Position numbers and translations under genes: made by a program
Source of the DNA: Eledone cirrhosa
Lineage: Eukaryota
Direction: 5' to 3'
Assembly (NCBI GenBank): GCA_964016885.1
Contig: OZ024743.1
Location: 222,022,001-222,086,000 of the forward strand
DNA length: 64,000 nt
Shown here: positions 37,804 through 64,000 of the stretch, piece by piece
Layout: the number at the start of each line of letters is the position of its first letter
Numbering within the stretch: position 1 is the first letter of the stretch
Notes under the pieces: model-generated
Told to the model about the DNA's origin: nothing
What the model saw: the letters and a program-made list of their open reading frames with translations, nothing else
Databases searched by the model: none

Positions 37804-38055
37804 GTAAGTTTGAAGAATTGTTAGATAAAATATATACAGTCTTTCTTCTCCCTAGTCCGTAGAAATCAACCACATAAATAATCATTTAAACGAGGCTATA
37901 ATTTTAAAATGTAACTATGAAGAAATAATAGACAAATGATACAGACTATTTTCCGCGAGGGTCAGCCAGATAAAATTTATCTAGTCATTCCTTTTAGCCC
38001 GTAGAAATTGACTAGACAAATAATCAATTTTATATATAGCTCTGATTAACAATTT

Positions 38056-38735
38056 CTGACTTGTGGAGCTATGTCGAACAGTTGCTGTCGCGTGTAGGAC
38101 TGATCCGGTTATCGACTGAGTCCATTGTGTAGATGGTCTCGCCGTCTTCCTTCGAGGAGGAAGGGCAGGCGGTTTTCATCTGCCTGGTGGCCATGGCGAA
38201 AGAGATTGTGTGGTGGACAAGGTTGAAAGGGTTAAAGACAGACACTTTCCTCTTCGGCGAATCCCTAATTAACTTTTTCAAGTTTCACTTGAAGAGGAAA
38301 ATCAGGGTGGAGAGGCAAGTGCTGCCTTCTAGCAAGTTTGTTGAAAGGTGGGTGAATGTAGCGAGAATAGTCCGAGTGAACGGGACCACTCTGAATATAC
38401 GTCTGTAGTTTGAGAAATGGAAAAATTGAGAGAGGGCGCTTGCCCTGGTGGTCAGGGTGGCCGTGGTCTTTTGTGTGGTTTTCGCCACGAGTAACCCTCG
38501 GAGGTTTCCCCCCTATTGGAGAATTTTTCATTGTTTCAATTTTCATTTTTATTGTTTATATATATATATGTTTCTATGTCTTTTTTTTCTTTTCTTATAT
38601 AAATAATAAAAATATTTACACGCACAAAACCCACATCGTACCGTCCTGTACCGTCCTGTGCCGGCTGTAATGTTTTTCTTGATGTCAGCCCTTGTGGCCA
38701 ATAAAGAAATCATCATTATTATTATTATTATTATT
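38056..38735 (+). mobile_element. 5'-truncated, diverged subfamily copy of the Tx1-like LINE (ORF2 C-terminus, 3' UTR, (ATT)n)
   Basis: EGQAVFICLVAMAKEIVWWTRLKGLKT...FFKFHLKRKIRVE matches the ORF2 end. Tail aataaagaaatcatc(att)n. Confidence 0.92.
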
Positions 38736-38960
38736 TGAGTCTCAGTCATTGATGTTATTTAACTGGAAAGTTTGTTGAAATGAATATCAAGCCACTACCT
38801 GCAGCCTCAGATATTCAGGACGTATCGGAGGGTTCTTACTGTTCCCAGCAAGCATGCCTTTTGAAGTGTTCCAAAAAGCGGGGCGAGACCAATTTTCTTT
38901 AACTATCCTTGGAAACTATTTGAGATAGTACCTAGTGCGCCTATGACAATCGGGACCAGT
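38736..38960 (-). mobile_element. 3'-end fragment of an R4/Dong-like RLE non-LTR retrotransposon ending in (AAT)n
   Basis: 38959-38807(-) translates as LVPIVIGALGTISNSFQG*LKKIGLAPLFGTLQKACLLGTVRTLRYVLNI*. This resembles the VPIVIGALG...QKA.LLGT...LR.VL C-terminus of R4-clade proteins. It is followed by a ~70-nt UTR and (AAT)n. Confidence 0.8.
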
Positions 38961-39221
38961 ATGTGTCTGTAAATTAAAGGTGGAAAACTGGAAGAGGGCA
39001 TTTTCCCTGGTGGTCAGGGTTACTGTGGCTTTTTAATGGGCTTTCTCCACGAATGTCCCTCGGAAGTCTCCCCCGTATTGGGGATTTTTCAGTGTTATTT
39101 TTTTGTTACATCCTCTGTTTTTGTTTTTTACACGCAGAAATGCCCATTTATACCGCCCTGTATTGTCCTGTACTGTCCTTAATGTCTACTTTATGTAAAC
39201 CCTTATGGTTAATAAAGAAAG

Positions 39222-39273
<52 letters not shown>
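38958..39273 (+). mobile_element. Solo 3' end of the Tx1-like LINE (last ORF2 codons, 3' UTR, (ATT)17)
   Basis: Aligns to 45028-45355 with substitutions and small deletions. Confidence 0.9.
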
Positions 39274-39490
39274 GAATGCTATGGTTGACGGAGGCTCGGC
39301 TCTGTAAGGTACTGTAAATTTTGAACGCTTTAACAATTGTAAATTGTTTAAAACTTAGACCAACTTGTAGACAAAAACACCCTCCTCCTCGTGAGAGGGG
39401 TCTTTCTGCCCGTTATTTGGCCCTTCGGGGTTAAATAACTGCTTATTGGGGGTTTGTACCCAATATTTATTTTAAACAAAAAAAAACAAC

Positions 39491-41587
39491 ATGGCTACGA
39501 AAAAGAATTTGCATAGGTCACTCCCACTCATTCCGTCTTCTTCTTCCTCAATCGTCACTACAGCAGAGAGAAGATTGTCTCTCTCCCTCCCTTCTTTAAA
39601 TGTGTCTCTCTCCCTCCCTTCTCTTTCGCAAGTGACGAAAGAAAAGAAAAGTCTCGTGCAAAGCGTGCAAGGTTTCTCCACGACGACGACGACAGCGACG
39701 AAACAGGTGTGCGGGAAATACGAAAACCCAGTTCATTCGTCTGACGTCAGGAATAATAGCAGTAGCAGCCGTAATAACAACAGCAACAGTGACAATGAAA
39801 ACAACAGTAGCAGCCGCAACAGCATCACCAGCAGCATAAACAACAACAGCATTAGCAGCAGCAACACCAACAACAACCACAGCAACAGCGGCGGAGGCAG
39901 TAGTCGTAGTACCTGCAGCAACAACAAAAGTACCAGCAGCTCTGACGACAACAACAACAGCAGAGAAAAACCAATCTCATTTGCAGGTATTGCGAAAAAC
40001 CTGGAAACAATCCTCATAACAAATGAGGAATTAGAGGAAGCGAAGAAGATGGTGACAAAGAACGGACACCGAGCAATCTGCAAGGCAGCGAAAAATTTTT
40101 TCGAAACCCAAGAGCACTGTACGGTCACGTACCGTACAGTAAGTACAAAATCCCGTAGGGTGGAAAGAGCCACAGAGGCCCAAATACAAAAAGCCTTGGG
40201 GTCTGTGTGGCAGAGGAAAACGCACATCACCCGAGGCAAAAAATACGCCACCGTAGACGTACTTTTTGCCACACCCCAGGAGGCAAAGGCCCAATCAGTA
40301 GTGACCCTAAGGAGCGAGGAAATGGTGTTGGTGCCCTCCTACTGCGGGCAAAAAATTGTGAGGGTCAAACTGACCCACGTCCCCCCCGGAATGACCCCTT
40401 CTTGGCTGGCCGCGTCTGTCCTCGTCGGAATCGAGGACAAAACAACTGTACTGCAAGTACAGAAAAAAGTAAGAGAAGATTGGGTCGGCTCCTCCATTGA
40501 GATGCTAATCCAAACCAACCAGGAGTGCATCGAAGCTATCCCGGATGTGATAGACTTCGATAACGGCACTCAACTGCCCATAAGTGTTGAGGGCAAACGC
40601 CCGAAATGCTTTCGCTGTGGATCGAAGACTCACCTCAGGGCCTTCTGCAACGAGAAGACCCTGAGAAAGGAGAAAACCCCCCTCCTCCCGAATCCGGTTC
40701 CACGGCTACCAGCAACAGGACAAGCGGCAACCAGGAACGATAGGTCCGTGGCACCCATACCCACTCCACGGAAATCAAAGACAGCAGCAGCAGTGGAAAT
40801 ATTAACAACAACAACAGCAATACCAAATGCAGCTGCAACAGAGACTCCAGTGCAAACATCACCAACAACAACAAGTGAAAGAGTGGAGCTGGTACCCCTC
40901 CCCGACCTTACAGAATCAGACATGGAGTGTGAGGTGGGAGAGGGATGGCAAAAGGTCTCAAGAAGGCACAAACGCAGAAGCAGCGCATCGTCGCCTTTGA
41001 AAAGGGAGGAAAGAAATGAGAAAAGGGTAAAGTCTACTGCAAAGAGACCCACAGCAGCAACAACACCAACACCATCACCACCCACACCAGCACCACCATC
41101 ACCACCGGCGACAACCCCACCGCCAACAACACCTTCAACACCACCACCACAAGCACCAACATCGCAAACACAACAACAAAACACACACACCCAGCAACAA
41201 CGACAAGAAAATAGCAGAACCACACCCCACCCCCAGAAAAACAAATGCACGGCAATAAACACACACAACAAGAAACTAATGACTTACATAATTGAACACA
41301 CAGACATTTCACAACAGGACTACATAATACCAGCACCAATCAAAACGCCAACTAACATAAGACTGCTAAAAATAGCACAGAAACAATACACAAACATTAA
41401 AACGAAATTCCCCAACGCAGTTGGTGATTTCAGGGACCTAGGAGGAACCATTAATCGAAGAGTATATTCAGACATTCTCTTAGAAGAGCCGACGACCAGC
41501 CGAAGGGACGATTCAACGGTCCCTTCACCAGACGATCAAGTGAAAAGGGATGTAAAAACCATCCCTCCTCTACCAAAAATACGGTAA
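39491..41587 (+). CDS. LINE ORF1 (698 aa): S/N-rich N-terminus, CCHC zinc knuckle, P/T-rich linker
   Basis: CFRCGSKTHLRAFC (CX2CX4HX4C); GWQKVSRRHKRR; lies upstream of ORF2. Confidence 0.9.
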   Translation: MATKKNLHRSLPLIPSSSSSIVTTAERRLSLSLPSLNVSLSLPSLSQVTKEKKSLVQSVQGFSTTTTTATKQVCGKYENPVHSSDVRNNSSSSRNNNSNSDNENNSSSRNSITSSINNNSISSSNTNNNHSNSGGGSSRSTCSNNKSTSSSDDNNNSREKPISFAGIAKNLETILITNEELEEAKKMVTKNGHRAICKAAKNFFETQEHCTVTYRTVSTKSRRVERATEAQIQKALGSVWQRKTHITRGKKYATVDVLFATPQEAKAQSVVTLRSEEMVLVPSYCGQKIVRVKLTHVPPGMTPSWLAASVLVGIEDKTTVLQVQKKVREDWVGSSIEMLIQTNQECIEAIPDVIDFDNGTQLPISVEGKRPKCFRCGSKTHLRAFCNEKTLRKEKTPLLPNPVPRLPATGQAATRNDRSVAPIPTPRKSKTAAAVEILTTTTAIPNAAATETPVQTSPTTTSERVELVPLPDLTESDMECEVGEGWQKVSRRHKRRSSASSPLKREERNEKRVKSTAKRPTAATTPTPSPPTPAPPSPPATTPPPTTPSTPPPQAPTSQTQQQNTHTQQQRQENSRTTPHPQKNKCTAINTHNKKLMTYIIEHTDISQQDYIIPAPIKTPTNIRLLKIAQKQYTNIKTKFPNAVGDFRDLGGTINRRVYSDILLEEPTTSRRDDSTVPSPDDQVKRDVKTIPPLPKIR

Positions 41588-41622
41588 GTGGTCTTTCCCA
41601 TCTTTTCCACTCTATTTTAAAC

Positions 41623-44600
41623 ATGACCTCACTCAGAATAGGCAGCATAAATGCGCGTGGCTTGGGGTCGTCATGGAAGCAGGGTCACCTGCTCAACGAC
41701 CTCAGGTCACTAAACATAGATGTAGTGGCCATCAGCGAGACCAGAATCTCCGAAGCACGGGCCTTCGCACCGATCTTCGGCGGCTACGATGTGTACGCAT
41801 CTCCCAGCCGTCCTGGATCCGGTGGAGGAGTTGCTGTGCTTTTTCGGAGAGGTTTGGATCTCGCCATACGGGCCATCTTCCTGGACCCAGAGGGTAAGCT
41901 GGTGGTGCTGGACGTGACCAGCGGAGACGGGCAAGCTTTCAGGCTAGTGGCCGTCTATGCCCCGACAGGAGCAGGGCGGCCTGATTTCTTCCGGCGTCTG
42001 GAGACCTTTCTTGGAACGTCGCGCTCTTTAGTGTTAGTGGGCGACTGGAACGGGATCTTAGATGCACGCTGGGACTGTGTGGGATTAGCGGATAGGGGTG
42101 GAGGGTGCAAGAGCCTCACCAACCTGCTCAGGCGTTTTGAACTGTCTGACAGGTACCGATTGGATTTCCCGAATGTGCCAATGTGGACTTGGACAAACCG
42201 CATAGGGTCATCCAGATCATATCTAGATAGAGTATTTTGTAGGGAAATAGATAGGTCTAGCATAGGCTGTCCACAATTCAAGATAGTCAGCTACACGGAC
42301 CACAAATTCGTGATCTGTGTGCTTGACTTAGATAGGCTTCATAGACGAGGACCCGGCTACTGGAAGCTAAACGCGTCCTTACCAGCGCGCAAGGCCTACA
42401 GAGACCGGATTAGCGAACTAGTTAAGCGGGCGTTGACGGGGGCCATCGTCAACAACAAGTGGTGGTTTGCTCTGAAAAGAGCGATTAGAATAGAATCGAT
42501 TAGGTTTAGTAAGGCTTTAGCAATAGAGAAAAATAGAGCAGAGGGAGAACTAGTTAGAAAATTAGACGAGGCGCTTAGCAAAGGCATTGCGACCGACGTG
42601 CTTGCGGCGAAATTGGCCCTTGACCAATTCTTCAATGCAAAGCACGAAGGCTGCGTTGTCAGAGCTAGGGTGCGTGCTCTCAGACACGAGGGGACGAAAG
42701 CCGTTCAATGGGCCCGAGTGGCGGAGGCGCGTCGTGGCAACAAAGCCACGATCCGGTCTTTGGTGGACCACGACGGGCGCATGCTACTCGATCCCGGGCA
42801 AATGTGTGAAGCTTTTCAGCGACACTTCGCTCAGCTGTTCGGGGGCAGCGGGGGGCCGGGTAGAGGGATGGACTTTAGTGTCTACCTCGACGGACTGCCG
42901 CGGCTCTCGGCCACTGAGGCGAAGTGTTGCGAAAAGCCGATAACAGCCGCTGAAGTAAGGGAGGCAATGACTGGCTGCACAAGGGGTAAATCGCCTGGTT
43001 TGGATGGTCTGCCCTATGAACTTTACGTACAGATGCCAGACTTGTTCGGAGGCCTCTTGGCGGACGTCTACTGCAACTGGCAACAGAACGGGAGAATTCC
43101 CAGTTCTGTGAGCCGAGGAGCGGTGGCACTGCTGAGAAAGGATCCGAACAAGGGGGATAACATAGACAATTTCCGGCCCATAACTCTGCTAAACACAGAG
43201 TTTAAGATTTTGGCCAAGGTGCTAGCAAAGAGGTTGGCGCTTGTCGTTGGTGGTCTGGTGGGAGAGGCGCAGACATGCGCCATTCCCGACAGATCCATCC
43301 ACGACAACCTCCACCTCATGCGATACATCGTAGAGAAGGTAGCTAGGGAACCTGGCACGGGTGGGTCCTTGATCAATTTAGATCAGTCGAAAGCTTTCGA
43401 TAGGGTCGACCATCGTTACCTAGCGGCAGTCCTGAGGGCGGCTGGCTTTGGGCCCGTCTTCAGAGGCTGGATCGCTGCCATGCACAGCGACATCTGCTCT
43501 GTGGTGAGAGTGAACGGTCACCTGTCGGAACCGTTCAACATCATGCGCTCGGTCCGCCAAGGATGTCCCCTCTCGTCCCTCTTGTACGTATTGACTCTCG
43601 AGCCATTACTGCACAAACTGGAGACGTTGAGGGGAGTCCCGCGCGAACTAGGATGCGGAAGATCCGTGTCAGCATATGCGGACGATGTCACCGTAGTGGT
43701 GTCGAACGCCAAACACATCGAGGCGATCGGCACTACACTAAGAGAATACGAAGCGGTGACAGGAGCAATGATCAACCAGGAAAAGTCAGTGGGCCTGCAG
43801 CTCGGCACCTGGAGAGGCAGGTCCATGCCGTCCAACAGCGTCGTCGGGCGCTGGACGGACGGACCGGTTAAATTGCTAGGGGTCTGGTTCGGTCCGGACC
43901 TCCAGACGGACAAAAACTGGGACGAGGTGACGAGCAGGGTGGCTTCTCTCACCCAGAAATGGGCGGAGAGGAAGCTATCCCTGAAAGGTCGAGCGGAGGT
44001 GGCTAACGCGTACATCGCGTCTGTCATCTGCTACCGCCTAACCGTCGTACCTTGTCCTAAGCCTCGCCTGACTGCGCTGGAGCGTTTGCTCTTTCGCTTT
44101 TTGTGGAAGGGACGTGCTCCGATGGTCAGGCGGTCCATCTGTTGTCAACACCCGCTACGTGGAGGGCTGGGCATGCCGTGGCTGATGATGCGCAGGCACG
44201 CGCTCAGGCTACGACATCTCCACCTCTTCCTCGACGGTGATCAGGTGTGGTCGCCGTTTGCTAGACGCGTTTTTCCCCAGCTCGTTTCCTTGACGGAGCT
44301 GCAGTCCTGGGTCAAGCGAAGACCGAGAGGGAGCGCCTGGAGACTGGAATGTCTTCAGGCGCTCACAGCCCTCGACCAATCGGGCAATGTGATCGGTGGA
44401 AACTCCACCTCGGCGTTCTATAGAGGATTAGTGGAGGGGAAGAGCGACGACGTACTTGGGGAAACTCTAGGCGTCGACGAAAATCAACTAGCCAATCTCT
44501 TCGGAAGAACCTTCGGGCCAGGGCCTATGGACAACTTCCAGAAATCTCTGGCCTGGCAGTGCTACCGAGGAGCCTTGCCAGTTCGGGATAAACTCTACAG

Positions 44601-45042
44601 GCATGGAGGTGCCGTCAGCCGGGCATGTCCGAGATGCGCGCAGGGCGACGAAACCGTCCTGCACGCACTCGTCCAGTGTCCGAAAATTGCTGACTTGTGG
44701 GTTTATGTCGAACACCTGCTGTCGCGTTTAGGACGGATCCAGCTATCATCTGAGTCTATCGTGAGGATTGCCCCGCCCTCCTCCTTTAGCCGGGAAGGGC
44801 AGGCAGTTTTTATCTGTCTGGTGGCCATGGCGAAAGAGATAGTATGGTGGACACGTTTGAAAGGGCTGAAGACGAGCACTTACCTCTTCGGTGATGCTCT
44901 GATTGACTTTTTCAAATTTCATTTGAAAAGGAAAATCAGAGTAGAGAAGGAAGTGCTCTCTTCCCAGCATTTTGTTGAAAGATGGGTGAGAGAAGCAAGA
45001 ATGGCCCGAGTGAATGGGCCGACTCTGAGTATATATCTGTAA
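41623..45042 (+). CDS. LINE ORF2 (1139 aa): AP endonuclease, RT, C-terminal zinc finger; L1/Tx1-like
   Basis: SINARGL, SET, VYAP, GDWN, YLDRVF, TDH, GPGYWKLN, KSPGLDGLP.E.Y, FRPITLLN, DQSKAFDRV, RQGCPLS, YADD, GGLG, CPRC....ETVLHALVQC. Confidence 0.96.
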   Translation: MTSLRIGSINARGLGSSWKQGHLLNDLRSLNIDVVAISETRISEARAFAPIFGGYDVYASPSRPGSGGGVAVLFRRGLDLAIRAIFLDPEGKLVVLDVTSGDGQAFRLVAVYAPTGAGRPDFFRRLETFLGTSRSLVLVGDWNGILDARWDCVGLADRGGGCKSLTNLLRRFELSDRYRLDFPNVPMWTWTNRIGSSRSYLDRVFCREIDRSSIGCPQFKIVSYTDHKFVICVLDLDRLHRRGPGYWKLNASLPARKAYRDRISELVKRALTGAIVNNKWWFALKRAIRIESIRFSKALAIEKNRAEGELVRKLDEALSKGIATDVLAAKLALDQFFNAKHEGCVVRARVRALRHEGTKAVQWARVAEARRGNKATIRSLVDHDGRMLLDPGQMCEAFQRHFAQLFGGSGGPGRGMDFSVYLDGLPRLSATEAKCCEKPITAAEVREAMTGCTRGKSPGLDGLPYELYVQMPDLFGGLLADVYCNWQQNGRIPSSVSRGAVALLRKDPNKGDNIDNFRPITLLNTEFKILAKVLAKRLALVVGGLVGEAQTCAIPDRSIHDNLHLMRYIVEKVAREPGTGGSLINLDQSKAFDRVDHRYLAAVLRAAGFGPVFRGWIAAMHSDICSVVRVNGHLSEPFNIMRSVRQGCPLSSLLYVLTLEPLLHKLETLRGVPRELGCGRSVSAYADDVTVVVSNAKHIEAIGTTLREYEAVTGAMINQEKSVGLQLGTWRGRSMPSNSVVGRWTDGPVKLLGVWFGPDLQTDKNWDEVTSRVASLTQKWAERKLSLKGRAEVANAYIASVICYRLTVVPCPKPRLTALERLLFRFLWKGRAPMVRRSICCQHPLRGGLGMPWLMMRRHALRLRHLHLFLDGDQVWSPFARRVFPQLVSLTELQSWVKRRPRGSAWRLECLQALTALDQSGNVIGGNSTSAFYRGLVEGKSDDVLGETLGVDENQLANLFGRTFGPGPMDNFQKSLAWQCYRGALPVRDKLYRHGGAVSRACPRCAQGDETVLHALVQCPKIADLWVYVEHLLSRLGRIQLSSESIVRIAPPSSFSREGQAVFICLVAMAKEIVWWTRLKGLKTSTYLFGDALIDFFKFHLKRKIRVEKEVLSSQHFVERWVREARMARVNGPTLSIYL

Positions 45043-45302
45043 ACTAAAGGTGGAAAACTGGGAGAGGGCACTTGCCTTGGTGGTCAGGGTCATTGTGGCT
45101 TTTTACTGGGCTTTCTCCACAAATGTTCCTCCGAAGTCTCCCCCCTATTGGGGAATTTTTCATTGTTATTTTCATTGTTATTTTTGTTACATCCTCTGTT
45201 TTTGTTTTTTTACACGCAGAAATGCCCATTTGTACCGTCCTGCATTGTCCTGCACTGTCCTTAATGTCTACTTTATGTAAACCCTTGTGGTTAATAAAGA
45301 AA

Positions 45303-45355
<53 letters not shown>

Positions 45356-45572
45356 GAATGCTATGGTTGACGGAGGCTCGGCTCTGTAAGGTACTGTAAA
45401 TTTTGAACGCTTTAACAATTGTAAATTGTTTAAAACTTAGACCAACTTGTAGACAAAAACACCCTCCTCCTCGTGAGAGGGGTCTTTCTGCCCGTTATTT
45501 GGCCCTTCGGGGTTAAATAACTGCTTATTGGGGGTTTGTACCCAATATTTATTTTAAACAAAAAAAAACAAC

Positions 45573-47663
45573 ATGGCTACGAAAAAGAATTTGCATAGGT
45601 CACTCCCACTCATTCCGTCTTCTTCTTCCTCAATCGTCACTACAGCAGAGAGAAGATTGTCTCTCTCCCTCCCTTCTTTAAATGTGTCTCTCTCCCTCCC
45701 TTCTCTTTCGCAAGTGACGAAAGAAAAGAAAAGTCTCGTGCAAAGCGTGCAAGGTTTCTCCACGACGACGACGACAGCGACGAAACAGGTGTGCGGGAAA
45801 TACGAAAACCCAGTTCATTCGTCTGACGTCAGGAATAATAGCAGTAGCAGCCGTAATAACAACAGCAACAGTGACAATGAAAACAACAGTAGCAGCCGCA
45901 ACAGCATCACCAGCAGCATAAACAACAACAGCATTAGCAGCAGCAACACCAACAACAACCACAGCAACAGCGGCGGAGGCAGTAGTCGTAGTACCTGCAG
46001 CAACAACAAAAGTACCAGCAGCTCTGACGACAACAACAACAGCAGAGAAAAACCAATCTCATTTGCAGGTATTGCGAAAAACCTGGAAACAATCCTCATA
46101 ACAAATGAGGAATTAGAGGAAGCGAAGAAGATGGTGACAAAGAACGGACACCGAGCAATCTGCAAGGCAGCGAAAAATTTTTTCGAAACCCAAGAGCACT
46201 GTACGGTCACGTACCGTACAGTAAGTACAAAATCCCGTAGGGTGGAAAGAGCCACAGAGGCCCAAATACAAAAAGCCTTGGGGTCTGTGTGGCAGAGGAA
46301 AACGCACATCACCCGAGGCAAAAAATACGCCACCGTAGACGTACTTTTTGCCACACCCCAGGAGGCAAAGGCCCAATCAGTAGTGACCCTAAGGAGCGAG
46401 GAAATGGTGTTGGTGCCCTCCTACTGCGGGCAAAAAATTGTGAGGGTCAAACTGACCCACGTCCCCCCCGGAATGACCCCTTCTTGGCTGGCCGCGTCTG
46501 TCCTCGTCGGAATCGAGGACAAAACAACTGTACTGCAAGTACAGAAAAAAGTAAGAGAAGATTGGGTCGGCTCCTCCATTGAGATGCTAATCCAAACCAA
46601 CCAGGAGTGCATCGAAGCTATCCCGGATGTGATAGACTTCGATAACGGCACTCAACTGCCCATAAGTGTTGAGGGCAAACGCCCGAAATGCTTTCGCTGT
46701 GGATCGAAGACTCACCTCAGGGCCTTCTGCAACGAGAAGACCCTGAGAAAGGAGAAAACCCCCCTCCTCCCGAATCCGGTTCCACGGCTACCAGCAACAG
46801 GACAAGCGGCAACCAGGAACGATAGGTCCGTGGCACCCATACCCACTCCACGGAAATCAAAGACAGCAGCAGCAGTGGAAATATTAACAACAACAACAGC
46901 AATACCAAATGCAGCTGCAACAGAGACTCCAGTGCAAACATCACCAACAACAACAAGTGAAAGAGTGGAGCTGGTACCCCTCCCCGACCTTACAGAATCA
47001 GACATGGAGTGTGAGGTGGGAGAGGGATGGCAAAAGGTCTCAAGAAGGCACAAACGCAGAAGCAGCGCATCGTCGCCTTTGAAAAGGGAGGAAAGAAATG
47101 AGAAAAGGGTAAAGTCTACTGCAAAGAGACCCACAGCAGCAACACCACCAACACCATCACCACCCACACCAGCACCACCATCACCACCGGCGACAACCCC
47201 ACCGCCAACAACACCTTCAACACCACAAGCACCAACATCGCAAACACAACAACAAAACACACACACCCAGCAACAACGACAAGAAAATAGCAGAACCACA
47301 CCCCACCCCCAGAAAAACAAATGCACGGCAATAAACACACACAACAAGAAACTAATGACTTACATAATTGAACACACAGACATTTCACAACAGGACTACA
47401 TAATACCAGCACCAATCAAAACGCCAACTAACATAAGACTGCTAAAAATAGCACAGAAACAATACACAAACATTAAAACGAAATTCCCCAACGCAGTTGG
47501 TGATTTCAGGGACCTAGGAGGAACCATTAATCGAAGAGTATATTCAGACATTCTCTTAGAAGAGCCGACGACCAGCCGAAGGGACGATTCAACGGTCCCT
47601 TCACCAGACGATCAAGTGAAAAGGGATGTAAAAACCATCCCTCCTCTACCAAAAATACGGTAA
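45573..47663 (+). CDS. LINE ORF1 (696 aa)
   Basis: As copy 1, with a 2-codon deletion in the proline-rich tract. Confidence 0.9.
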   Translation: MATKKNLHRSLPLIPSSSSSIVTTAERRLSLSLPSLNVSLSLPSLSQVTKEKKSLVQSVQGFSTTTTTATKQVCGKYENPVHSSDVRNNSSSSRNNNSNSDNENNSSSRNSITSSINNNSISSSNTNNNHSNSGGGSSRSTCSNNKSTSSSDDNNNSREKPISFAGIAKNLETILITNEELEEAKKMVTKNGHRAICKAAKNFFETQEHCTVTYRTVSTKSRRVERATEAQIQKALGSVWQRKTHITRGKKYATVDVLFATPQEAKAQSVVTLRSEEMVLVPSYCGQKIVRVKLTHVPPGMTPSWLAASVLVGIEDKTTVLQVQKKVREDWVGSSIEMLIQTNQECIEAIPDVIDFDNGTQLPISVEGKRPKCFRCGSKTHLRAFCNEKTLRKEKTPLLPNPVPRLPATGQAATRNDRSVAPIPTPRKSKTAAAVEILTTTTAIPNAAATETPVQTSPTTTSERVELVPLPDLTESDMECEVGEGWQKVSRRHKRRSSASSPLKREERNEKRVKSTAKRPTAATPPTPSPPTPAPPSPPATTPPPTTPSTPQAPTSQTQQQNTHTQQQRQENSRTTPHPQKNKCTAINTHNKKLMTYIIEHTDISQQDYIIPAPIKTPTNIRLLKIAQKQYTNIKTKFPNAVGDFRDLGGTINRRVYSDILLEEPTTSRRDDSTVPSPDDQVKRDVKTIPPLPKIR

Positions 47664-47698
47664 GTGGTCTTTCCCATCTTTTCCACTCTATTTTAAAC

Positions 47699-50600
47699 AT
47701 GACCTCACTCAGAATAGGCAGCATAAATGCGCGTGGCTTGGGGTCGTCATGGAAGCAGGGTCACCTGCTCAACGACCTCAGGTCACTAAACATAGATGTA
47801 GTGGCCATCAGCGAGACCAGAATCTCCGAAGCACGGGCCTTCGCACCGATCTTCGGCGGCTACGATGTGTACGCATCTCCCAGCCGTCCTGGATCCGGTG
47901 GAGGAGTTGCTGTGCTTTTTCGGAGAGGTTTGGATCTCGCCATACGGGCCATCTTCCTGGACCCAGAGGGTAAGCTGGTGGTGCTGGACGTGACCAGCGG
48001 AGACGGGCAAGCTTTCAGGCTAGTGGCCGTCTATGCCCCGACAGGAGCAGGGCGGCCTGATTTCTTCCGGCGTCTGGAGACCTTTCTTGGAACGTCGCGC
48101 TCTTTAGTGTTAGTGGGCGACTGGAACGGGATCTTAGATGCACGCTGGGACTGTGTGGGATTAGCGGATAGGGGTGGAGGGTGCAAGAGCCTCACCAACC
48201 TGCTCAGGCGTTTTGAACTGTCTGACAGGTACCGATTGGATTTCCCGAATGTGCCAATGTGGACTTGGACAAACCGCATAGGGTCATCCAGATCATATCT
48301 AGATAGAGTATTTTGTAGGGAAATAGATAGGTCTAGCATAGGCTGTCCACAATTCAAGATAGTCAGCTACACGGACCACAAATTCGTGATCTGTGTGCTT
48401 GACTTAGATAGGCTTCATAGACGAGGACCCGGCTACTGGAAGCTAAACGCGTCCTTACCAGCGCGCAAGGCCTACAGAGACCGGATTAGCGAACTAGTTA
48501 AGCGGGCGTTGACGGGGGCCATCGTCAACAACAAGTGGTGGTTTGCTCTGAAAAGAGCGATTAGAATAGAATCGATTAGGTTTAGTAAGGCTTTAGCAAT
48601 AGAGAAAAATAGAGCAGAGGGAGAACTAGTTAGAAAATTAGACGAGGCGCTTAGCAAAGGCATTGCGACCGACGTGCTTGCGGCGAAATTGGCCCTTGAC
48701 CAATTCTTCAATGCAAAGCACGAAGGCTGCGTTGTCAGAGCTAGGGTGCGTGCTCTCAGACACGAGGGGACGAAAGCCGTTCAATGGGCCCGAGTGGCGG
48801 AGGCGCGTCGTGGCAACAAAGCCACGATCCGGTCTTTGGTGGACCACGACGGGCGCATGCTACTCGATCCCGGGCAAATGTGTGAAGCTTTTCAGCGACA
48901 CTTCGCTCAGCTGTTCGGGGGCAGCGGGGGGCCGGGTAGAGGGATGGACTTTAGTGTCTACCTCGACGGACTGCCGCGGCTCTCGGCCACTGAGGCGAAG
49001 TGTTGCGAAAAGCCGATAACAGCCGCTGAAGTAAGGGAGGCAATGACTGGCTGCACAAGGGGTAAATCGCCTGGTTTGGATGGTCTGCCCTATGAACTTT
49101 ACGTACAGATGCCAGACTTGTTCGGAGGCCTCTTGGCGGACGTCTACTGCAACTGGCAACAGAACGGGAGAATTCCCAGTTCTGTGAGCCGAGGAGCGGT
49201 GGCACTGCTGAGAAAGGATCCGAACAAGGGGGATAACATAGACAATTTCCGGCCCATAACTCTGCTAAACACAGAGTTTAAGATTTTGGCCAAGGTGCTA
49301 GCAAAGAGGTTGGCGCTTGTCGTTGGTGGTCTGGTGGGAGAGGCGCAGACATGCGCCATTCCCGACAGATCCATCCACGACAACCTCCACCTCATGCGAT
49401 ACATCGTAGAGAAGGTAGCTAGGGAACCTGGCACGGGTGGGTCCTTGATCAATTTAGATCAGTCGAAAGCTTTCGATAGGGTCGACCATCGTTACCTAGC
49501 GGCAGTCCTGAGGGCGGCTGGCTTTGGGCCCGTCTTCAGAGGCTGGATCGCTGCCATGCACAGCGACATCTGCTCTGTGGTGAGAGTGAACGGTCACCTG
49601 TCGGAACCGTTCAACATCATGCGCTCGGTCCGCCAAGGATGTCCCCTCTCGTCCCTCTTGTACGTATTGACTCTCGAGCCATTACTGCACAAACTGGAGA
49701 CGTTGAGGGGAGTCCCGCGCGAACTAGGATGCGGAAGATCCGTGTCAGCATATGCGGACGATGTCACCGTAGTGGTGTCGAACGCCAAACACATCGAGGC
49801 GATCGGCACTACACTAAGAGAATACGAAGCGGTGACAGGAGCAATGATCAACCAGGAAAAGTCAGTGGGCCTGCAGCTCGGCACCTGGAGAGGCAGGTCC
49901 ATGCCGTCCAACAGCGTCGTCGGGCGCTGGACGGACGGACCGGTTAAATTGCTAGGGGTCTGGTTCGGTCCGGACCTCCAGACGGACAAAAACTGGGACG
50001 AGGTGACGAGCAGGGTGGCTTCTCTCACCCAGAAATGGGCGGAGAGGAAGCTATCCCTGAAAGGTCGAGCGGAGGTGGCTAACGCGTACATCGCGTCTGT
50101 CATCTGCTACCGCCTAACCGTCGTACCTTGTCCTAAGCCTCGCCTGACTGCGCTGGAGCGTTTGCTCTTTCGCTTTTTGTGGAAGGGACGTGCTCCGATG
50201 GTCAGGCGGTCCATCTGTTGTCAACACCCGCTACGTGGAGGGCTGGGCATGCCGTGGCTGATGATGCGCAGGCACGCGCTCAGGCTACGACATCTCCACC
50301 TCTTCCTCGACGGTGATCAGGTGTGGTCGCCGTTTGCTAGACGCGTTTTTCCCCAGCTCGTTTCCTTGACGGAGCTGCAGTCCTGGGTCAAGCGAAGACC
50401 GAGAGGGAGCGCCTGGAGACTGGAATGTCTTCAGGCGCTCACAGCCCTCGACCAATCGGGCAATGTGATCGGTGGAAACTCCACCTCGGCGTTCTATAGA
50501 GGATTAGTGGAGGGGAAGAGCGACGACGTACTTGGGGAAACTCTAGGCGTCGACGAAAATCAACTAGCCAATCTCTTCGGAAGAACTTTCGGGCCAGGGC

Positions 50601-51118
50601 CTATGGACAACTTCCAGAAATCTCTGGCCTGGCAGTGCTACCGAGGAGCCTTGCCAGTTCGGGATAAACTCTACAGGCATGGAGGTGCCGTCAGCCGGGC
50701 ATGTCCGAGATGCGCGCAGGGCGACGAAACCGTCCTGCACGCACTCGTCCAGTGTCCGAAAATTGCTGACTTGTGGGTTTATGTCGAACACCTGCTGTCG
50801 CGTTTAGGACGGATCCAGCTATCATCTGAGTCTATCGTGAGGATTGCCCCGCCCTCCTCCTTTAGCCGGGAAGGGCAGGCAGTTTTTATCTGTCTGGTGG
50901 CCATGGCGAAAGAGATAGTATGGTGGACACGTTTGAAAGGGCTGAAGACGAGCACTTACCTCTTCGGTGATGCTCTGATTGACTTTTTCAAATTTCATTT
51001 GAAAAGGAAAATCAGAGTAGAAAAGGAAGTGCTCTCTTCCCAGCATTTTGTTGAAAGATGGGTGAGAGAAGCAAGAATGGCCCGAGTGAATGGGCCGACT
51101 CTGAGTATATATCTGTAA
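47699..51118 (+). CDS. LINE ORF2 (1139 aa)
   Basis: Protein appears identical to copy 1. Confidence 0.96.
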   Translation: MTSLRIGSINARGLGSSWKQGHLLNDLRSLNIDVVAISETRISEARAFAPIFGGYDVYASPSRPGSGGGVAVLFRRGLDLAIRAIFLDPEGKLVVLDVTSGDGQAFRLVAVYAPTGAGRPDFFRRLETFLGTSRSLVLVGDWNGILDARWDCVGLADRGGGCKSLTNLLRRFELSDRYRLDFPNVPMWTWTNRIGSSRSYLDRVFCREIDRSSIGCPQFKIVSYTDHKFVICVLDLDRLHRRGPGYWKLNASLPARKAYRDRISELVKRALTGAIVNNKWWFALKRAIRIESIRFSKALAIEKNRAEGELVRKLDEALSKGIATDVLAAKLALDQFFNAKHEGCVVRARVRALRHEGTKAVQWARVAEARRGNKATIRSLVDHDGRMLLDPGQMCEAFQRHFAQLFGGSGGPGRGMDFSVYLDGLPRLSATEAKCCEKPITAAEVREAMTGCTRGKSPGLDGLPYELYVQMPDLFGGLLADVYCNWQQNGRIPSSVSRGAVALLRKDPNKGDNIDNFRPITLLNTEFKILAKVLAKRLALVVGGLVGEAQTCAIPDRSIHDNLHLMRYIVEKVAREPGTGGSLINLDQSKAFDRVDHRYLAAVLRAAGFGPVFRGWIAAMHSDICSVVRVNGHLSEPFNIMRSVRQGCPLSSLLYVLTLEPLLHKLETLRGVPRELGCGRSVSAYADDVTVVVSNAKHIEAIGTTLREYEAVTGAMINQEKSVGLQLGTWRGRSMPSNSVVGRWTDGPVKLLGVWFGPDLQTDKNWDEVTSRVASLTQKWAERKLSLKGRAEVANAYIASVICYRLTVVPCPKPRLTALERLLFRFLWKGRAPMVRRSICCQHPLRGGLGMPWLMMRRHALRLRHLHLFLDGDQVWSPFARRVFPQLVSLTELQSWVKRRPRGSAWRLECLQALTALDQSGNVIGGNSTSAFYRGLVEGKSDDVLGETLGVDENQLANLFGRTFGPGPMDNFQKSLAWQCYRGALPVRDKLYRHGGAVSRACPRCAQGDETVLHALVQCPKIADLWVYVEHLLSRLGRIQLSSESIVRIAPPSSFSREGQAVFICLVAMAKEIVWWTRLKGLKTSTYLFGDALIDFFKFHLKRKIRVEKEVLSSQHFVERWVREARMARVNGPTLSIYL

Positions 51119-51378
51119 ACTAAAGGTGGAAAACTGGGAGAGGGCACTTGCCTTGGTGGTCAGGGTCATTGTGGCTTTTTACTGGGCTTTCTCCACAAAT
51201 GTCCCTCCGAAGTCTCCCCCCTATTGGGGAATTTTTCATTGTTATTTTCATTGTTATTTTTGTTACATCCTCTGTTTTTGTTTTTTTACACGCAGAAATG
51301 CCCATTTGTACCGTCCTGCATTGTCCTGCACTGTCCTTAATGTCTACTTTATGTAAACCCTTGTGGTTAATAAAGAAA

Positions 51379-51422
<44 letters not shown>

Positions 51423-51639
51423 GAATGCTATGGTTGACGGAGGCTCGGCTCTGTAAGGTACTGTAAATTTTGAACGCTTTAACAATTGTAAATTGTTTAA
51501 AACTTAGACCAACTTGTAGACAAAAACACCCTCCTCCTCGTGAGAGGGGTCTTTCTGCCCGTTATTTGGCCCTTCGGGGTTAAATAACTGCTTATTGGGG
51601 GTTTGTACCCAATATTTATTTTAAACAAAAAAAAACAAC

Positions 51640-53730
51640 ATGGCTACGAAAAAGAATTTGCATAGGTCACTCCCACTCATTCCGTCTTCTTCTTCCTCAA
51701 TCGTCACTACAGCAGAGAGAAGATTGTCTCTCTCCCTCCCTTCTTTAAATGTGTCTCTCTCCCTCCCTTCTCTTTCGCAAGTGACGAAAGAAAAGAAAAG
51801 TCTCGTGCAAAGCGTGCAAGGTTTCTCCACGACGACGACGACAGCGACGAAACAGGTGTGCGGGAAATACGAAAACCCAGTTCATTCGTCTGACGTCAGG
51901 AATAATAGCAGTAGCAGCCGTAATAACAACAGCAACAGTGACAATGAAAACAACAGTAGCAGCCGCAACAGCATCACCAGCAGCATAAACAACAACAGCA
52001 TTAGCAGCAGCAACACCAACAACAACCACAGCAACAGCGGCGGAGGCAGTAGTCGTAGTACCTGCAGCAACAACAAAAGTACCAGCAGCTCTGACGACAA
52101 CAACAACAGCAGAGAAAAACCAATCTCATTTGCAGGTATTGCGAAAAATTTGGAAACAATCCTCATAACAAATGAGGAATTAGAGGAAGCGAAGAAGATG
52201 GTGACAAAGAACGGACACCGAGCAATCTGCAAGGCAGCGAAAAATTTTTTCGAAACCCAAGAGCACTGTACGGTCACGTACCGTACAGTAAGTACAAAAT
52301 CCCGTAGGGTGGAAAGAGCCACAGAGGCCCAAATACAAAAAGCCTTGGGGTCTGTGTGGCAGCGGAAAACGCACATCACCCGAGGCAAAAAATATGCCAC
52401 CGTAGACGTACTTTTTGCCACACCCCAGGAGGCAAAGGCCCAATCAGTAGTGACCCTAAGGAGCGAGGAAATGGTGTTGGTGCCCTCCTACTGTGGGCAA
52501 AAAATTGTGAGGGTCAAACTGACCCACGTCCCCCCCGGAATGACCCCTTCTTGGCTGGCCGCGTCTGTCCTCGTCGGAATCGAGGACAAAACAACTGTAC
52601 TGCAAGTACAGAAAAAAGTAAGAGAAGATTGGGTCGGCTCCTCCATTGAGATGCTAATCCAAACCAACCAGGAGTGCATCGAAGCTATCCCGGATGTGAT
52701 AGACTTCGATAACGGCACTCAACTTCCCATAAGTGTTGAGGGCAAACGCCCGAAATGCTTTCGCTGTGGATCGAAGACTCACCTCAGGGCCTTCTGCAAC
52801 GAGAAGACCCTGAGAAAGGAGAAAACCCCCCTCCTTCCGAATCCGGCTCCACGGCTACCAGCAACAGGACAAGCGGCAACCAGGAACGATAGGTCCGTGG
52901 CACCCATACCCACTCCACGGAAATCAAAGACAGCAGCAGCAGTGGAAATATTAACAACAACAACAGCAATACCAAATGCAGCTGCAACAGAGACTCCAGT
53001 GCAAACATCACCAACAACAACAAGTGAAAGAGTGGAGCTGGTACCCCTCCCCGACCTTACAGAATCAGACATGGAGTGTGAGGTGGGAGAGGGATGGCAA
53101 AAGGTCGCAAGAAGGCACAAACGCAGAAGCAGCGCATCGTCGCCTTTGAAAAGGGAGGAAAGAAATGAGAAAAGGGTAAAGTCTACTGCAAAGAGACCCA
53201 CAGCAGCAACACCACCAACACCATCACCACCCACACCAGCACCACCATCACCACCGGCGACAACCCCACCGCCAACAACACCTTCAACACCACAAGCACC
53301 AACATCGCAAACACAACAACAAAACACACACACCCAGCAACAACGACAAGAAAATAGCAGAACCACACCCCACCCCCAGAAAAACAAATGCACGGCAATA
53401 AACACACACAACAAGAAACTAATGACTTACATAATTGAACACACAGACATTTCACAACAGGACTACATAATACCAGCACCAATCAAAACGCCAACTAACA
53501 TAAGACTGCTAAAAATAGCACAGAAACAATACACAAACATTAAAACGAAATTCCCCAACGCAGTTGGTGATTTCAGGGACCTAGGAGGAACCATTAATCG
53601 AAGAGTATATTCAGACATTCTCTTAGAAGAGCCGACGACCAGCCGAAGGGACGATTCAACGGTCCCTTCACCAGACGATCAAGTGAAAAGGGATGTAAAA
53701 ACCATCCCTCCTCTACCAAAAATACGGTAA
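51640..53730 (+). CDS. LINE ORF1 (696 aa)
   Basis: As above, with NPAP and VARR variants. Confidence 0.9.
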   Translation: MATKKNLHRSLPLIPSSSSSIVTTAERRLSLSLPSLNVSLSLPSLSQVTKEKKSLVQSVQGFSTTTTTATKQVCGKYENPVHSSDVRNNSSSSRNNNSNSDNENNSSSRNSITSSINNNSISSSNTNNNHSNSGGGSSRSTCSNNKSTSSSDDNNNSREKPISFAGIAKNLETILITNEELEEAKKMVTKNGHRAICKAAKNFFETQEHCTVTYRTVSTKSRRVERATEAQIQKALGSVWQRKTHITRGKKYATVDVLFATPQEAKAQSVVTLRSEEMVLVPSYCGQKIVRVKLTHVPPGMTPSWLAASVLVGIEDKTTVLQVQKKVREDWVGSSIEMLIQTNQECIEAIPDVIDFDNGTQLPISVEGKRPKCFRCGSKTHLRAFCNEKTLRKEKTPLLPNPAPRLPATGQAATRNDRSVAPIPTPRKSKTAAAVEILTTTTAIPNAAATETPVQTSPTTTSERVELVPLPDLTESDMECEVGEGWQKVARRHKRRSSASSPLKREERNEKRVKSTAKRPTAATPPTPSPPTPAPPSPPATTPPPTTPSTPQAPTSQTQQQNTHTQQQRQENSRTTPHPQKNKCTAINTHNKKLMTYIIEHTDISQQDYIIPAPIKTPTNIRLLKIAQKQYTNIKTKFPNAVGDFRDLGGTINRRVYSDILLEEPTTSRRDDSTVPSPDDQVKRDVKTIPPLPKIR

Positions 53731-53765
53731 GTGGTCTTTCCCATCTTTTCCACTCTATTTTAAAC

Positions 53766-56700
53766 ATGACCTCACTCAGAATAGGCAGCATAAATGCGCG
53801 TGGCTTGGGGTCGTCATGGAAGCAGGGTCACCTGCTCAACGACCTCAGGTCACTAAACATAGATGTAGTGGCCATCAGCGAGACCAGAATCTCCGAAGCA
53901 CGGGCCTTCGCACCGATCTTCGGCGGCTACGATGTGTACGCATCTCCCAGCCGTCCTGGATCCGGTGGAGGAGTTGCTGTACTTTTTCGGAGAGGTTTGG
54001 ATCTCGCCATACGGGCCATCTTCCTGGACCCAGAGGGTAAGCTGGTGGTGCTGGACGTGACCAGCGGAGACGGGCAATCTTTCAGGCTAGTGGCCGTCTA
54101 TGCCCCGACAGGAGCAGGGCGGCCTGATTTCTTCCGGCGTCTGGAGACCTTTCTTGGAACGTCCCGCTCTTTAGTGTTAGTGGGCGACTGGAACGGGATC
54201 TTAGATGCACGCTGGGACTGTGTGGGATTAGCGGATAGGGGTGGAGGGTGCAAGAGCCTCACCAACCTGCTCAGGCGTTTTGAACTGTCTGACAGGTACC
54301 GATTGGATTTCCCGAATGTGCCAATGTGGACTTGGACAAACCGCTTAGGGTCATCCAGATCATATCTAGATAGAGTATTTTGTAGGGAAATAGATAGGTC
54401 TAGCATAGGCTGTCCACAATTCAAGATAGTCAGCTACACGGACCACAAATTCGTGACCTGTGTGCTTGACTTAGATAGGCTTCATAGACGAGGACCCGGC
54501 TACTGGAAGCTAAACGCGTCCTTACCAGCGCGCAAGGCCTACAGAGACCGGATTAGCGAACTAGTTAAGCGGGCGTTGACGGGGGCCATCGTCAACAACA
54601 AGTGGTGGTTTGCTCTGAAAAGAGCGATTAGAATAGAATCGATTAGGTTTAGTAAGGCTTTAGCAATAGAGAAAAATAGAGCAGAGGGAGAACTAGTTAG
54701 AAAATTAGACGAGGCGCTTAGCAAAGGCATTGCGACCGACGTGCTTGCGGCGGAATTGGCCCTTGACCAATTCTTCAATGCAAAGCACGAAGGCTGCGTT
54801 GTCAGAGCTAGGGTGCGTGCTCTCAGACACGAGGGGACGAAAGCCGTTCAATGGGCCCGAGTGGCGGAGGCGCGTCGTGGCAACAAAGCCACGATCCGGT
54901 CTTTGGTGGACCACGACGGGCGCATGCTACTCGATCCCGGGCAAATGTGTGAAGCTTTTCAGCGACACTTCGCTCAGCTGTTCGGGGGCAGCGGGGGGCC
55001 GGGTAGAGGGATGGACTTTAGTGTCTACCTCGACGGACTGCCGCGGCTCTCGGCCACTGAGGCGAGGTGTTGCGAAAAGCCGATAACAGCCGCTGAAGTA
55101 CGGGAGGCAATGACTGGCTGCACAAGGGGTAAATCGCCTGGTTTGGATGGTCTGCCCTATGAACTTTACGTACAGATGCCAGACTTGTTCGGAGGCCTCT
55201 TGGCGGACGTCTACTGCAACTGGCAACAGAACGGGAGAATTCCCAGTTCTGTGAGCCGAGGAGCGGTGGCACTGCTGAGAAAGGATCCGAACAAGGGGGA
55301 TAACATAGACAATTTCCGGCCCATAACTCTGCTAAACACAGAGTTTAAGATTTTGGCCAAGGTGCTAGCAAAGAGGTTGGCGCTTGTCGTTGGTGGTCTG
55401 GTGGGAGAGGCGCAGACATGCGCCATTCCCGACAGATCCATCCACGACAACCTCCACCTCATGCGATACATCGTAGAGAGGGTAGCTAGGGAACCTGGCA
55501 CGGGTGGGTCCTTGATCAATTTAGATCAGTCGAAAGCTTTCGATAGGGTCGACCATCGTTACCTAGCGGCAGTCCTGAGGGCGGCTGGCTTTGGGCCCGT
55601 CTTCAGAGGCTGGATCGCTGCCATGCACAGCGACATCTGCTCTGTGGTGAGAGTGAACGGTCACCTGTCGGAACCGTTCAACATCATGCGCTCGGTCCGC
55701 CAAGGATGTCCCCTCTCGTCCCTCTTGTACGTATTGACTCTCGAGCCATTACTGCACAAACTGGAGACGTTGAGGGGAGTCCCGCGCGAACTAGGATGCG
55801 GAAGATCCGTGTCAGCATATGCGGACGATGTCACCGTAGTGGTGTCGAACGCCAAACACATCGAGGCGATCGGCACTACACTAAGAGAATACGAAGCGGT
55901 GACAGGAGCAATGATCAACCAGGAAAAGTCAGTGGGCCTGCAGCTCGGCACCTGGAGAGGCAGATCCATGCCGTCCAACAGCGTCGTCGGGCGCTGGACG
56001 GACGGACCGGTTAAATTGCTAGGGGTCTGGTTCGGTCCGGACCTCCAGACGGACAAAAACTGGGACGAGGTGACGAGCAGGGTGGCTTCTCTCACCCAGA
56101 AATGGGCGGAGAGGAAGCTATCCCTGAAAGGTCGAGCGGAGGTGGCTAACGCGTACATCGCGTCTGTCATCTGCTACCGCCTAACCGTCGTACCTTGTCC
56201 TAAGCCTCGCCTGACTGCGCTGGAGCGTTTGCTCTTTCGCTTTTTGTGGAAGGGACGTGCTCCGATGGTCAGGCGGTCCATCTGTTGTCAACACCCGCTA
56301 CGTGGAGGGCTGGGCATGCCGTGGCTGATGATGCGCAGGCACGCGCTCAGGCTACGACATCTCCACCTCTTCCTCGACGGTGATCAGGTGTGGTCGCCGT
56401 TTGCTAGACGCGTTTTTCCCCAGCTCGTTTCCTTGACGGAGCTGCAGTCCTGGGTCAAGCGAAGACCGAGAGGGAGCGCCTGGAGACTGGAATGTCTTCA
56501 GGCGCTCACAGCCCTCGACCAATCGGGCAATGTGATCGGTGGAAACTCCACCTCGGCGTTCTATAGAGGATTAGTGGAGGGGAAGAGCGACGACGTACTT
56601 GGGGAAACTCTAGGCGTCGACGAAAATCAACTAGCCAATCTCTTCGGAAGAACTTTCGGGCCAGGGCCTATGGACAACTTCCAGAAATCTCTGGCCTGGC

Positions 56701-57185
56701 AGTGCTACCGAGGAGCCTTGCCAGTTCGGGATAAACTCTACAGGCATGGAGGTGCCGTCAGCCGGGCATGTCCGAGATGCGCGCAGGGCGACGAAACCGT
56801 CCTGCACGCACTCGTCCAGTGTCCGAAAATTGCTGACTTGTGGGTTTATGTCGAACACCTGCTGTCGCGTTTAGGACGGATCCAGCTATCATCTGAGTCT
56901 ATCGTGAGGATTGCCCCGCCCTCCTCCTTTAGCCGGGAAGGGCAGGCAGTTTTTATCTGTCTGGTGGCCATGGCGAAAGAGATAGTATGGTGGACACGTT
57001 TGAAAGGGCTGAAGACGAGCACTTACCTCTTCGGTGATGCTCTGATTGACTTTTTCAAATTTCATTTGAAAAGGAAAATCAGAGTAGAGAAGGAAGTGCT
57101 CTCTTCCCAGCATTTTGTTGAAAGATGGGTGAGAGAAGCAAGAATGGCCCGAGTGAATGGGCCGACTCTGAGTATATATCTGTAA
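53766..57185 (+). CDS. LINE ORF2 (1139 aa)
   Basis: Intact; variants GQSF, NRLG, FVTC, AAEL, EARCC, VERV. Confidence 0.96.
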   Translation: MTSLRIGSINARGLGSSWKQGHLLNDLRSLNIDVVAISETRISEARAFAPIFGGYDVYASPSRPGSGGGVAVLFRRGLDLAIRAIFLDPEGKLVVLDVTSGDGQSFRLVAVYAPTGAGRPDFFRRLETFLGTSRSLVLVGDWNGILDARWDCVGLADRGGGCKSLTNLLRRFELSDRYRLDFPNVPMWTWTNRLGSSRSYLDRVFCREIDRSSIGCPQFKIVSYTDHKFVTCVLDLDRLHRRGPGYWKLNASLPARKAYRDRISELVKRALTGAIVNNKWWFALKRAIRIESIRFSKALAIEKNRAEGELVRKLDEALSKGIATDVLAAELALDQFFNAKHEGCVVRARVRALRHEGTKAVQWARVAEARRGNKATIRSLVDHDGRMLLDPGQMCEAFQRHFAQLFGGSGGPGRGMDFSVYLDGLPRLSATEARCCEKPITAAEVREAMTGCTRGKSPGLDGLPYELYVQMPDLFGGLLADVYCNWQQNGRIPSSVSRGAVALLRKDPNKGDNIDNFRPITLLNTEFKILAKVLAKRLALVVGGLVGEAQTCAIPDRSIHDNLHLMRYIVERVAREPGTGGSLINLDQSKAFDRVDHRYLAAVLRAAGFGPVFRGWIAAMHSDICSVVRVNGHLSEPFNIMRSVRQGCPLSSLLYVLTLEPLLHKLETLRGVPRELGCGRSVSAYADDVTVVVSNAKHIEAIGTTLREYEAVTGAMINQEKSVGLQLGTWRGRSMPSNSVVGRWTDGPVKLLGVWFGPDLQTDKNWDEVTSRVASLTQKWAERKLSLKGRAEVANAYIASVICYRLTVVPCPKPRLTALERLLFRFLWKGRAPMVRRSICCQHPLRGGLGMPWLMMRRHALRLRHLHLFLDGDQVWSPFARRVFPQLVSLTELQSWVKRRPRGSAWRLECLQALTALDQSGNVIGGNSTSAFYRGLVEGKSDDVLGETLGVDENQLANLFGRTFGPGPMDNFQKSLAWQCYRGALPVRDKLYRHGGAVSRACPRCAQGDETVLHALVQCPKIADLWVYVEHLLSRLGRIQLSSESIVRIAPPSSFSREGQAVFICLVAMAKEIVWWTRLKGLKTSTYLFGDALIDFFKFHLKRKIRVEKEVLSSQHFVERWVREARMARVNGPTLSIYL

Positions 57186-57445
57186 ACTAAAGGTGGAAAA
57201 CTGGGAGAGGGCACTTGCCTTGGTGGTCAGGGTCATTGTGGCTTTTTACTGGGCTTTCTCCACAAATGTCCCTCCGAAGTCTCCCCCCTATTGGGGAATT
57301 TTTCATTGTTATTTTCATTGTTATTTTTGTTACATCCTCTGTTTTTGTTTTTTTACACGCAGAAATGCCCATTTGTACCGTCCTGCATTGTCCTGCACTG
57401 TCCTTAATGTCTACTTTATGTAAACCCTTGTGGTTAATAAAGAAA

Positions 57446-57498
<53 letters not shown>

Positions 57499-57715
57499 GA
57501 ATGCTATGGTTGACGGAGGCTCGGCTCTGTAAGGTACTGTAAATTTTGAACGCTTTAACAATTGTAAATTGTTTAAAACTTAGACCAACTTGTAGACAAA
57601 AACACCCTCCTCCTCGTGAGAGGGGTCTTTCTGCCCGTTATTTGGCCCTTCGGGGTTAAATAACTGCTTATTGGGGGTTTGTACCCAATATTTATTTTAA
57701 ACAAAAAAAAACAAC

Positions 57716-59812: not shown

Positions 59813-59847
59813 GTGGTCTTTCCCATCTTTTCCACTCTATTTTAAAC

Positions 59848-63267: not shown

Positions 63268-63539
63268 ATTAAAGGTGGAAAACTGGGAGAGGGCACTTGC
63301 CTTGGTGGTCAGGGTCATTGTGGCTTTTTACTGGGCTTTCACCACAAATGTCCCTCCGAAGTCTCCCCCCTATTGGGGAATTTTTCATTGTTATTTTCAT
63401 TGTTATTTTTGTTACATCCTCTGTTTTTGTTTTTTTTACACGCAGAAATGCCCATTTGTACCGTCCTGCATTGTCCTGCACTGTCCTTAATGTCTACTTT
63501 ATGTAAACCCTTGTGGTTAATAAAGAAATCATTATTATT

Positions 63540-64000
63540 TGAGTCTCAGTCATTGATGTTATTTAACTGGAAAGTTTGTTGAAATGAATATCAAGCCACT
63601 ACCTGCAGCCTCAGATATTCAGGACGTATCGGAGGGTTCTTACTGTTCCCAGCAAGCATGCCTTTTGAAGTGTTCCAAAAAGCGGGGCGAGACCAATTTT
63701 CTTTAACTATCCTTGGAAACTATTTGAGATAGTACCTAGTGCGCCTATGACAATCGGGACCAGTATGTGTCTGTAAATTAAAGGTGGAAAACTGGAAGAG
63801 GGCATTTTCCCTGGTGGTCAGGGTTACTGTGGCTTTTTAATGGGCTTTCTCCACGAATGTCCCTCGGAAGTCTCCCCCGTATTGGGGATTTTTCAGTGTT
63901 ATTTTTTTGTTACATCCTCTGTTTTTGTTTTTTACACGCAGAAATGCCCATTTATACCGCCCTGTATTGTCCTGTACTGTCCTTAATGTCTACTTTATGT
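63540..64000. repeat. Direct repeat of 38736-39196 (R4/Dong-like 3' fragment on minus plus solo Tx1 3' end), running off the window
   Basis: No differences seen by eye over 461 bp; offset 24,804 bp. Confidence 0.95.

Follow-up and report, generated by a model that had tools for sequence, protein, structure and literature searches.

We have analyzed a stretch of 64,000 nucleotides of the Eledone cirrhosa genome (contig OZ024743.1, positions 222,022,001 to 222,086,000; the window). At 38736..39273 it contains the 3' ends of two retrotransposons that belong to unrelated families and point in opposite directions, with AAT and ATT tracts at the ends. The left arm lies on the minus strand and consists of the 71-nt 3' UTR (38736..38806) of a Dong/R4-like element, of the type with a restriction-like endonuclease (RLE), together with the last 49 codons and the stop of its ORF, which is interrupted by one premature stop (38807..38956). 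The right arm lies on the plus strand and comprises the final 15 nt of ORF2 plus the 3' UTR of a dispersed subfamily of Tx1-like elements (38958..39222), with an AATAAA at 39211, followed by an (ATT)17 that is tail and target tract at once (39223..39273). The two arms meet head to head at 38958, and no ATT tract was found between them (38736-39222). The structure read in the initial annotation, a minus-strand R4/Dong-like end and an opposite Tx1 3' end with (ATT)17, was therefore confirmed on the sequence.

On the left, the (ATT)7 at 38715..38735 doubles as the plus-strand tail of an older Tx1-like piece and as the minus-strand (AAT)7 tail of the Dong-like arm. The older piece (38051..38711, plus strand), a 5'-truncated 3' end of an older subfamily with 73% identity to positions 5412-6031 of the array unit, is the left neighbour and is outside the duplicated unit. 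To the right follow four full-length Tx1-like units on the plus strand (39274..63530), the first of 11 in tandem. Behind them an (ATT)3 (63531..63539) forms the left boundary of another copy of the fused unit, identical to the first, which begins at 63540 and extends beyond the end of the window (63540..64000). After it come (ATT)17 and a unit whose 5' UTR is of a different variant. The whole array is made of 10 near-identical full-length 6.03-kb units plus an older eleventh and ends ~42 kb past the window. The units are mosaic in structure and carry 5' UTRs of two types; the 10 near-identical ones lie 4-78 substitutions apart, and both ORFs are long in 8 of them. Genome-wide, Tx1-like elements form 400 tail-to-head junctions with short spacers.

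The two families

Read from 38956 to 38807, the left arm gives a 49-residue RLE-LINE C-terminus, which matches the end of a longer copy (L080) at 88% identity. The ORF of L080 codes for a reverse transcriptase (RT) followed by a CCHC motif and a PD-(D/E)xK-like nuclease motif, these motifs being read by eye (CxxC...H...C, RPD, DVACPFD, EKxxxxxxRY), and the closest solved structures in the PDB are R2 proteins (E 1e-23). The family has what marks an RLE non-LTR retrotransposon (RT, CCHC and a PD-(D/E)xK-type nuclease) and also what marks the target of Dong, i.e., TAA/AAT repeats entered in a fixed orientation. Elements of the R4/Dong clade are not known to have an N-terminal zinc finger, and none was seen by eye in the N-termini of L073, P0001 and P0002. 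From its sequence features we take the family to be probably Dong/R4; there are no named references among its 120 listed homologs (10 clusters). A single ORF, the RT, the CCHC, the restriction-like nuclease motif and TAA/AAT tracts at both ends are shared with Dong of Bombyx mori and the R4 clade; unlike those elements, the locus keeps only a 222-bp dead stump. TAA repeats upstream of the B. mori Dong are described in PMC3774820. As context, Dong-R4 and L1-Tx1 are both among the elements given as having been active recently in the genome of an octopus (PMC13282606) and, among molluscs, R4-Dong is nearly restricted to cephalopods (PMC10294476).

A 20-mer from the Dong-like 3' UTR has 5,812 exact matches in the 3.0-Gb genome. 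The left arm is without the terminal hexamer found in 40 of the 80 Dong-like copies sampled. There is also a second RLE family (L088:1098-3872, minus strand), with 39% protein identity to the first, ends in AAT tracts and a like orientation. At L054:400-1727 and at L145/L146, Dong-like pieces are joined inverted to each other, possibly by a 5' inversion within the single family.

The right arm represents the 3' end of a Tx1-like element of the APE type; a 22-mer taken from the UTR matches the same 3.0 Gb exactly at 6,905 places. An origin from the subfamily of the array itself is ruled out by its identity of 88% to the array unit vs. 94-96% to dispersed copies. The Tx1-like ORF2 carries PF03372, PF00078 and PF13966 (APE-RT-zinc finger) and has L1 ORF2p as best PDB match (E 3.5e-52), while ORF1 has a CCHC knuckle (by eye). 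The family combines the characters of Tx1: two ORFs, an ORF2 with APE, RT and a C-terminal zinc finger, affinity to the L1 group and, in addition, a repeat as target. It is presumably Tx1, a name given from sequence features, none of its 33 homologs being named. Similar elements of the Tx1 clade are Kibi, in (TC)n, and Koshi, in (TTC)n, which have two ORFs with APE-RT, are bounded by microsatellites and are frequently inserted in tandem (PMC4494074); unlike them, the right-arm family has (ATT)n as target. In the literature searched, to which Repbase, Dfam and most subscription journals did not belong, we found neither a report of a Tx1 family targeting (ATT)n nor a paper on head-to-head fusions of Dong and Tx1.

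A microsatellite shared on opposite strands

We have examined the first 80 of the 5,812 Dong-like matches (contig C1, 6 kb each, unselected for flanks, some neighbouring loci overlapping) and 28 loci selected with the Tx1 arm, small samples from one contig arm. Dong-like tails ended in AAT on the strand of the element in 75 of 80 copies and in none on the other strand. An ATT tract was found at the 5' junction of 38 of 60 truncated Dong-like copies, a count that omits 20 near-full-length copies with 5' ends poorly covered by the reference, vs. a background of 0.56% (random 40-mers from the first 36 kb of the window). As for the Tx1-like loci, ATT came next in 27 of 28 3' ends; among the 21 truncated copies whose 5' end could be seen, an ATT-like tract preceded 13 and, with a permissive pattern, was absent in 8. 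Tx1-like neighbours on the tail side of Dong-like copies were oriented plus in 23 cases vs. minus in one, and on the head side 13 vs. 0 (p=2e-4), with the orientation seen at the locus. Because these orientations are fixed, the proposal that RLE and APE LINE families occupy opposite strands of one microsatellite holds, on the orientation and target counts and on the domain and motif evidence. We infer that both enzymes cut ATT tracts. The genome holds thousands of RLE and Tx1-like copies that occupy opposite strands of a single microsatellite and form stacked arrays. A short and very common element with an ATT end and the orientation of Tx1 (L004, L010, L022, L140, L143, L190), likely a SINE from its tRNA-like box (by eye), also joins Dong-like 5' ends directly.

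The 13 Tx1 neighbours on the head side kept an ATT spacer in 7 cases (4 full-length, 3 truncated), were fused directly in 5 and were separated by a 46-nt gap in one. In the unselected sample, 5 of the 80 Dong-like copies were direct fusions, no two with a common breakpoint, and extrapolation from this figure gives ~360 (120-810) across the genome. More were present among the loci chosen as best matches (L014, L049, L072, L077 and L176, plus L084 with a few bases between the arms). The breakpoint differs in every fusion, and wherever relatives could be compared the overlap was ~0-4 nt. Head-to-head fusions without a spacer thus form a class that recurs in this genome. Loss of the spacer is not enriched beside Tx1, with 6 of 13 there vs. 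16 of 47 elsewhere (p=0.52).

Formation of the fused pair

Compared with the commonest continuation of both families, the arms overlap by 1 nt, the A at 38958. The microhomology agt at 38958-38960 suggested in the initial annotation had to be cut to this A; AGT fits only one of the 28 closest Dong-like loci (L053). Near the junction, 10 of 13 nt agree between the two families at an offset of 6 nt, a match reached by 54 of 4,000 random breakpoint pairs; as it was spotted post hoc, it is only a hint of homology-guided joining. Relative to the majority sequence of their 28 closest copies, the arms carry 4/222 and 8/265 substitutions, respectively (p=0.56), ~12 changes from the family majorities when taken together. 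The ages of the arms are inseparable, a point against sequential insertion.

Our analysis indicates that the locus is a real, recurrent and non-mobile composite of two known kinds of elements. The explanation that we consider quite probable is sequential insertion at one ATT tract, with loss of the spacer at the 5' junction and a later local duplication. Dong-like and Tx1-like elements would have inserted in turn into the tract, the enzymes presumably nicking opposite strands and each priming reverse transcription from its own tail. The 5'-truncated cDNA of the later arrival would have joined the body of the earlier element with almost no microhomology and with deletion of the spacer, which may alternatively have been removed by a subsequent deletion. 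The fused pair would then have gathered about a dozen changes, full-length Tx1-like units would afterwards have accumulated behind its right-hand tail, and the pair would have been copied once, 24.8 kb along the array, by unequal exchange, conversion or break repair acting at the DNA level from one ATT tract to another.

There are precedents for some of these steps. At R2 5' junctions, target sequence is deleted via chance microhomology (PMC3774820). A tandem of transposable elements in Drosophila has been explained by double insertion followed by unequal exchange (PMC5932611), and a tandem SINEU-3 pair that was first named as a subfamily has been reread as sequential insertion (PMC4494074). 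As in the Drosophila R1 array and SINEU-3B, elements here stack at a regenerated target and, as in the R1 array, the stacked elements later expand by unequal exchange (PMC5932611, PMC4494074); the difference is that here two enzyme classes stack oppositely, giving head-to-head joints.

Alternatively, a single event could have made both arms: at one ATT tract, the RLE enzyme would have primed on one strand and the APE enzyme on the opposite one, and their cDNAs would have been joined end to end. The geometry fits, with the families on opposite strands, and the ages of the arms are compatible. Direct fusions were found only with truncated Tx1 partners (5 of 9 vs. 0 of 4 full-length, p=0.10), which counts against sequential insertion and is also predicted by priming from two RNAs. 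Human L1 insertions from two RNAs in opposite orientation have been described (PMC11702581; 10.1101/2024.08.27.596794) and are similar in having two 5'-truncated pieces joined by their 5' ends with a short overlap; they are unlike the present case in that a single enzyme (L1 ORF2p) acts in single de novo events, whereas here a single event is hypothetical. Inside a microsatellite target duplications are unreadable. Against a single event, spacer-less joints are not in excess of what sequential insertion would give (p=0.52 and 0.74), neighbours other than Tx1 have such joints as well, and two different RNPs would have to meet simultaneously on one tail out of more than 12,000. We consider this origin improbable, and priming from two RNAs at one break, as proposed in the initial annotation, is not favoured. 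Equally doubtful is the wider idea that RLE and APE elements assist one another at ATT tracts, either one nicking the strand required by its counterpart, and that a share of the ~360 fusions are single two-RNA, two-enzyme events.

The second copy and the question of mobility

The initial annotation had suggested that the pair could be a mobilisable two-headed cassette, which copies at unlinked loci would support and confinement of the junction to this array would contradict. A 28-mer across the junction (up to 2 mismatches) had 2 matches in 3.0 Gb, both in this Tx1 array and 24.8 kb apart, with no unlinked loci, and this claim had to be abandoned. Junctions of three other fusions (L182, L171, L049) had one match each, i.e., all three are single-copy. 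A non-autonomous retroposon is expected to have many dispersed copies; the fused unit has two, both in one array. In four sequencing runs no listed read spans the junction, the reads being dominated by other members of the families.

The second copy is identical over 538 of 538 nt, the shared flanks being only 9 nt (left) and 6 nt (right) long. A single simple duplication of 24.8 kb was rejected, since units 1-4 and units 5-8 differ by 44, 34, 54 and 48 substitutions; as they do not pair, one clean duplication fails and an extra exchange is needed. Unit 5, which comes after the second copy, has alleles at unit positions 1425 and 1685 that it has in common only with units 1 and 2. We looked for other examples of local copying in three control regions chosen by the spacing among Tx1-like UTR matches. 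At C1:55.44-55.45 Mb, a one-headed 816-bp fragment of the second RLE family is found twice with 0 differences, antisense within a Tx1 array (L204-L206, C1:55.42-55.45 Mb), so that local copying needs no second head. At C1:45.777 Mb (L201:1749-2512), a truncated 395-bp Tx1 piece is duplicated in tandem with an identical 5' break and (ATT)8.

The pair might be debris and its second copy still have been retrotransposed, once, from a read-through RNA by the Tx1 or the Dong protein into the same array. The second copy is ATT-bounded on both sides, as a retrotransposed copy would be, which counts against sequential insertion with local duplication; its neighbours differ on both sides and both 3' UTRs are present. 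Nevertheless, a retrotransposed copy choosing tails at random would reach this array with a chance of ~0.1-0.2%, which a local preference could raise. The one-headed passenger was duplicated locally and identically, the (ATT)17 retained its exact length, and the next unit shares alleles with unit 1. This route is very unlikely in our opinion. We give hardly any credit to mobilisation of the fused unit, as a non-autonomous element, by one or the other machinery. Both of its strands carry a LINE 3' end, and its two copies differ in their immediate flanks, but unlinked copies are absent from the 3.0 Gb despite the ~12 changes in the arms, the three other fusion junctions are single-copy and the Dong-like arm is without the commonest terminal hexamer. 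An assembly error in a long tandem array, suggested by the 100% identity of the copies and by the repetitive array, is just as hard to believe, given that each copy has its own flanks and that units 4-78 substitutions apart indicate that the assembler resolved them.

The fused pair is likely insertion debris of an ordinary kind, left by target-specific retrotransposition, rather than a new mobile element. Among the steps of LINE integration, second-strand cleavage and 5' joining are the least understood, and the fusions of this genome offer hundreds of natural junctions for their study. If some of them were single two-enzyme events, cooperation across LINE clades would be shown.

Other repeats were apparent in the window. 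Related pieces at 36130-36720 and 36920-37440 are inverted with respect to each other between ACAT/ATGT repeats and are, by eye, a different repeat family. An RT plus GIY-YIG in split frames at 17951-20561 (minus strand) is Penelope-like, and frames at 23221-26685 (plus strand) carry a Helitron-like N domain and a Pif1 helicase. At 3181-4386 (plus strand) there is an open frame of 401 codons without a Pfam match.
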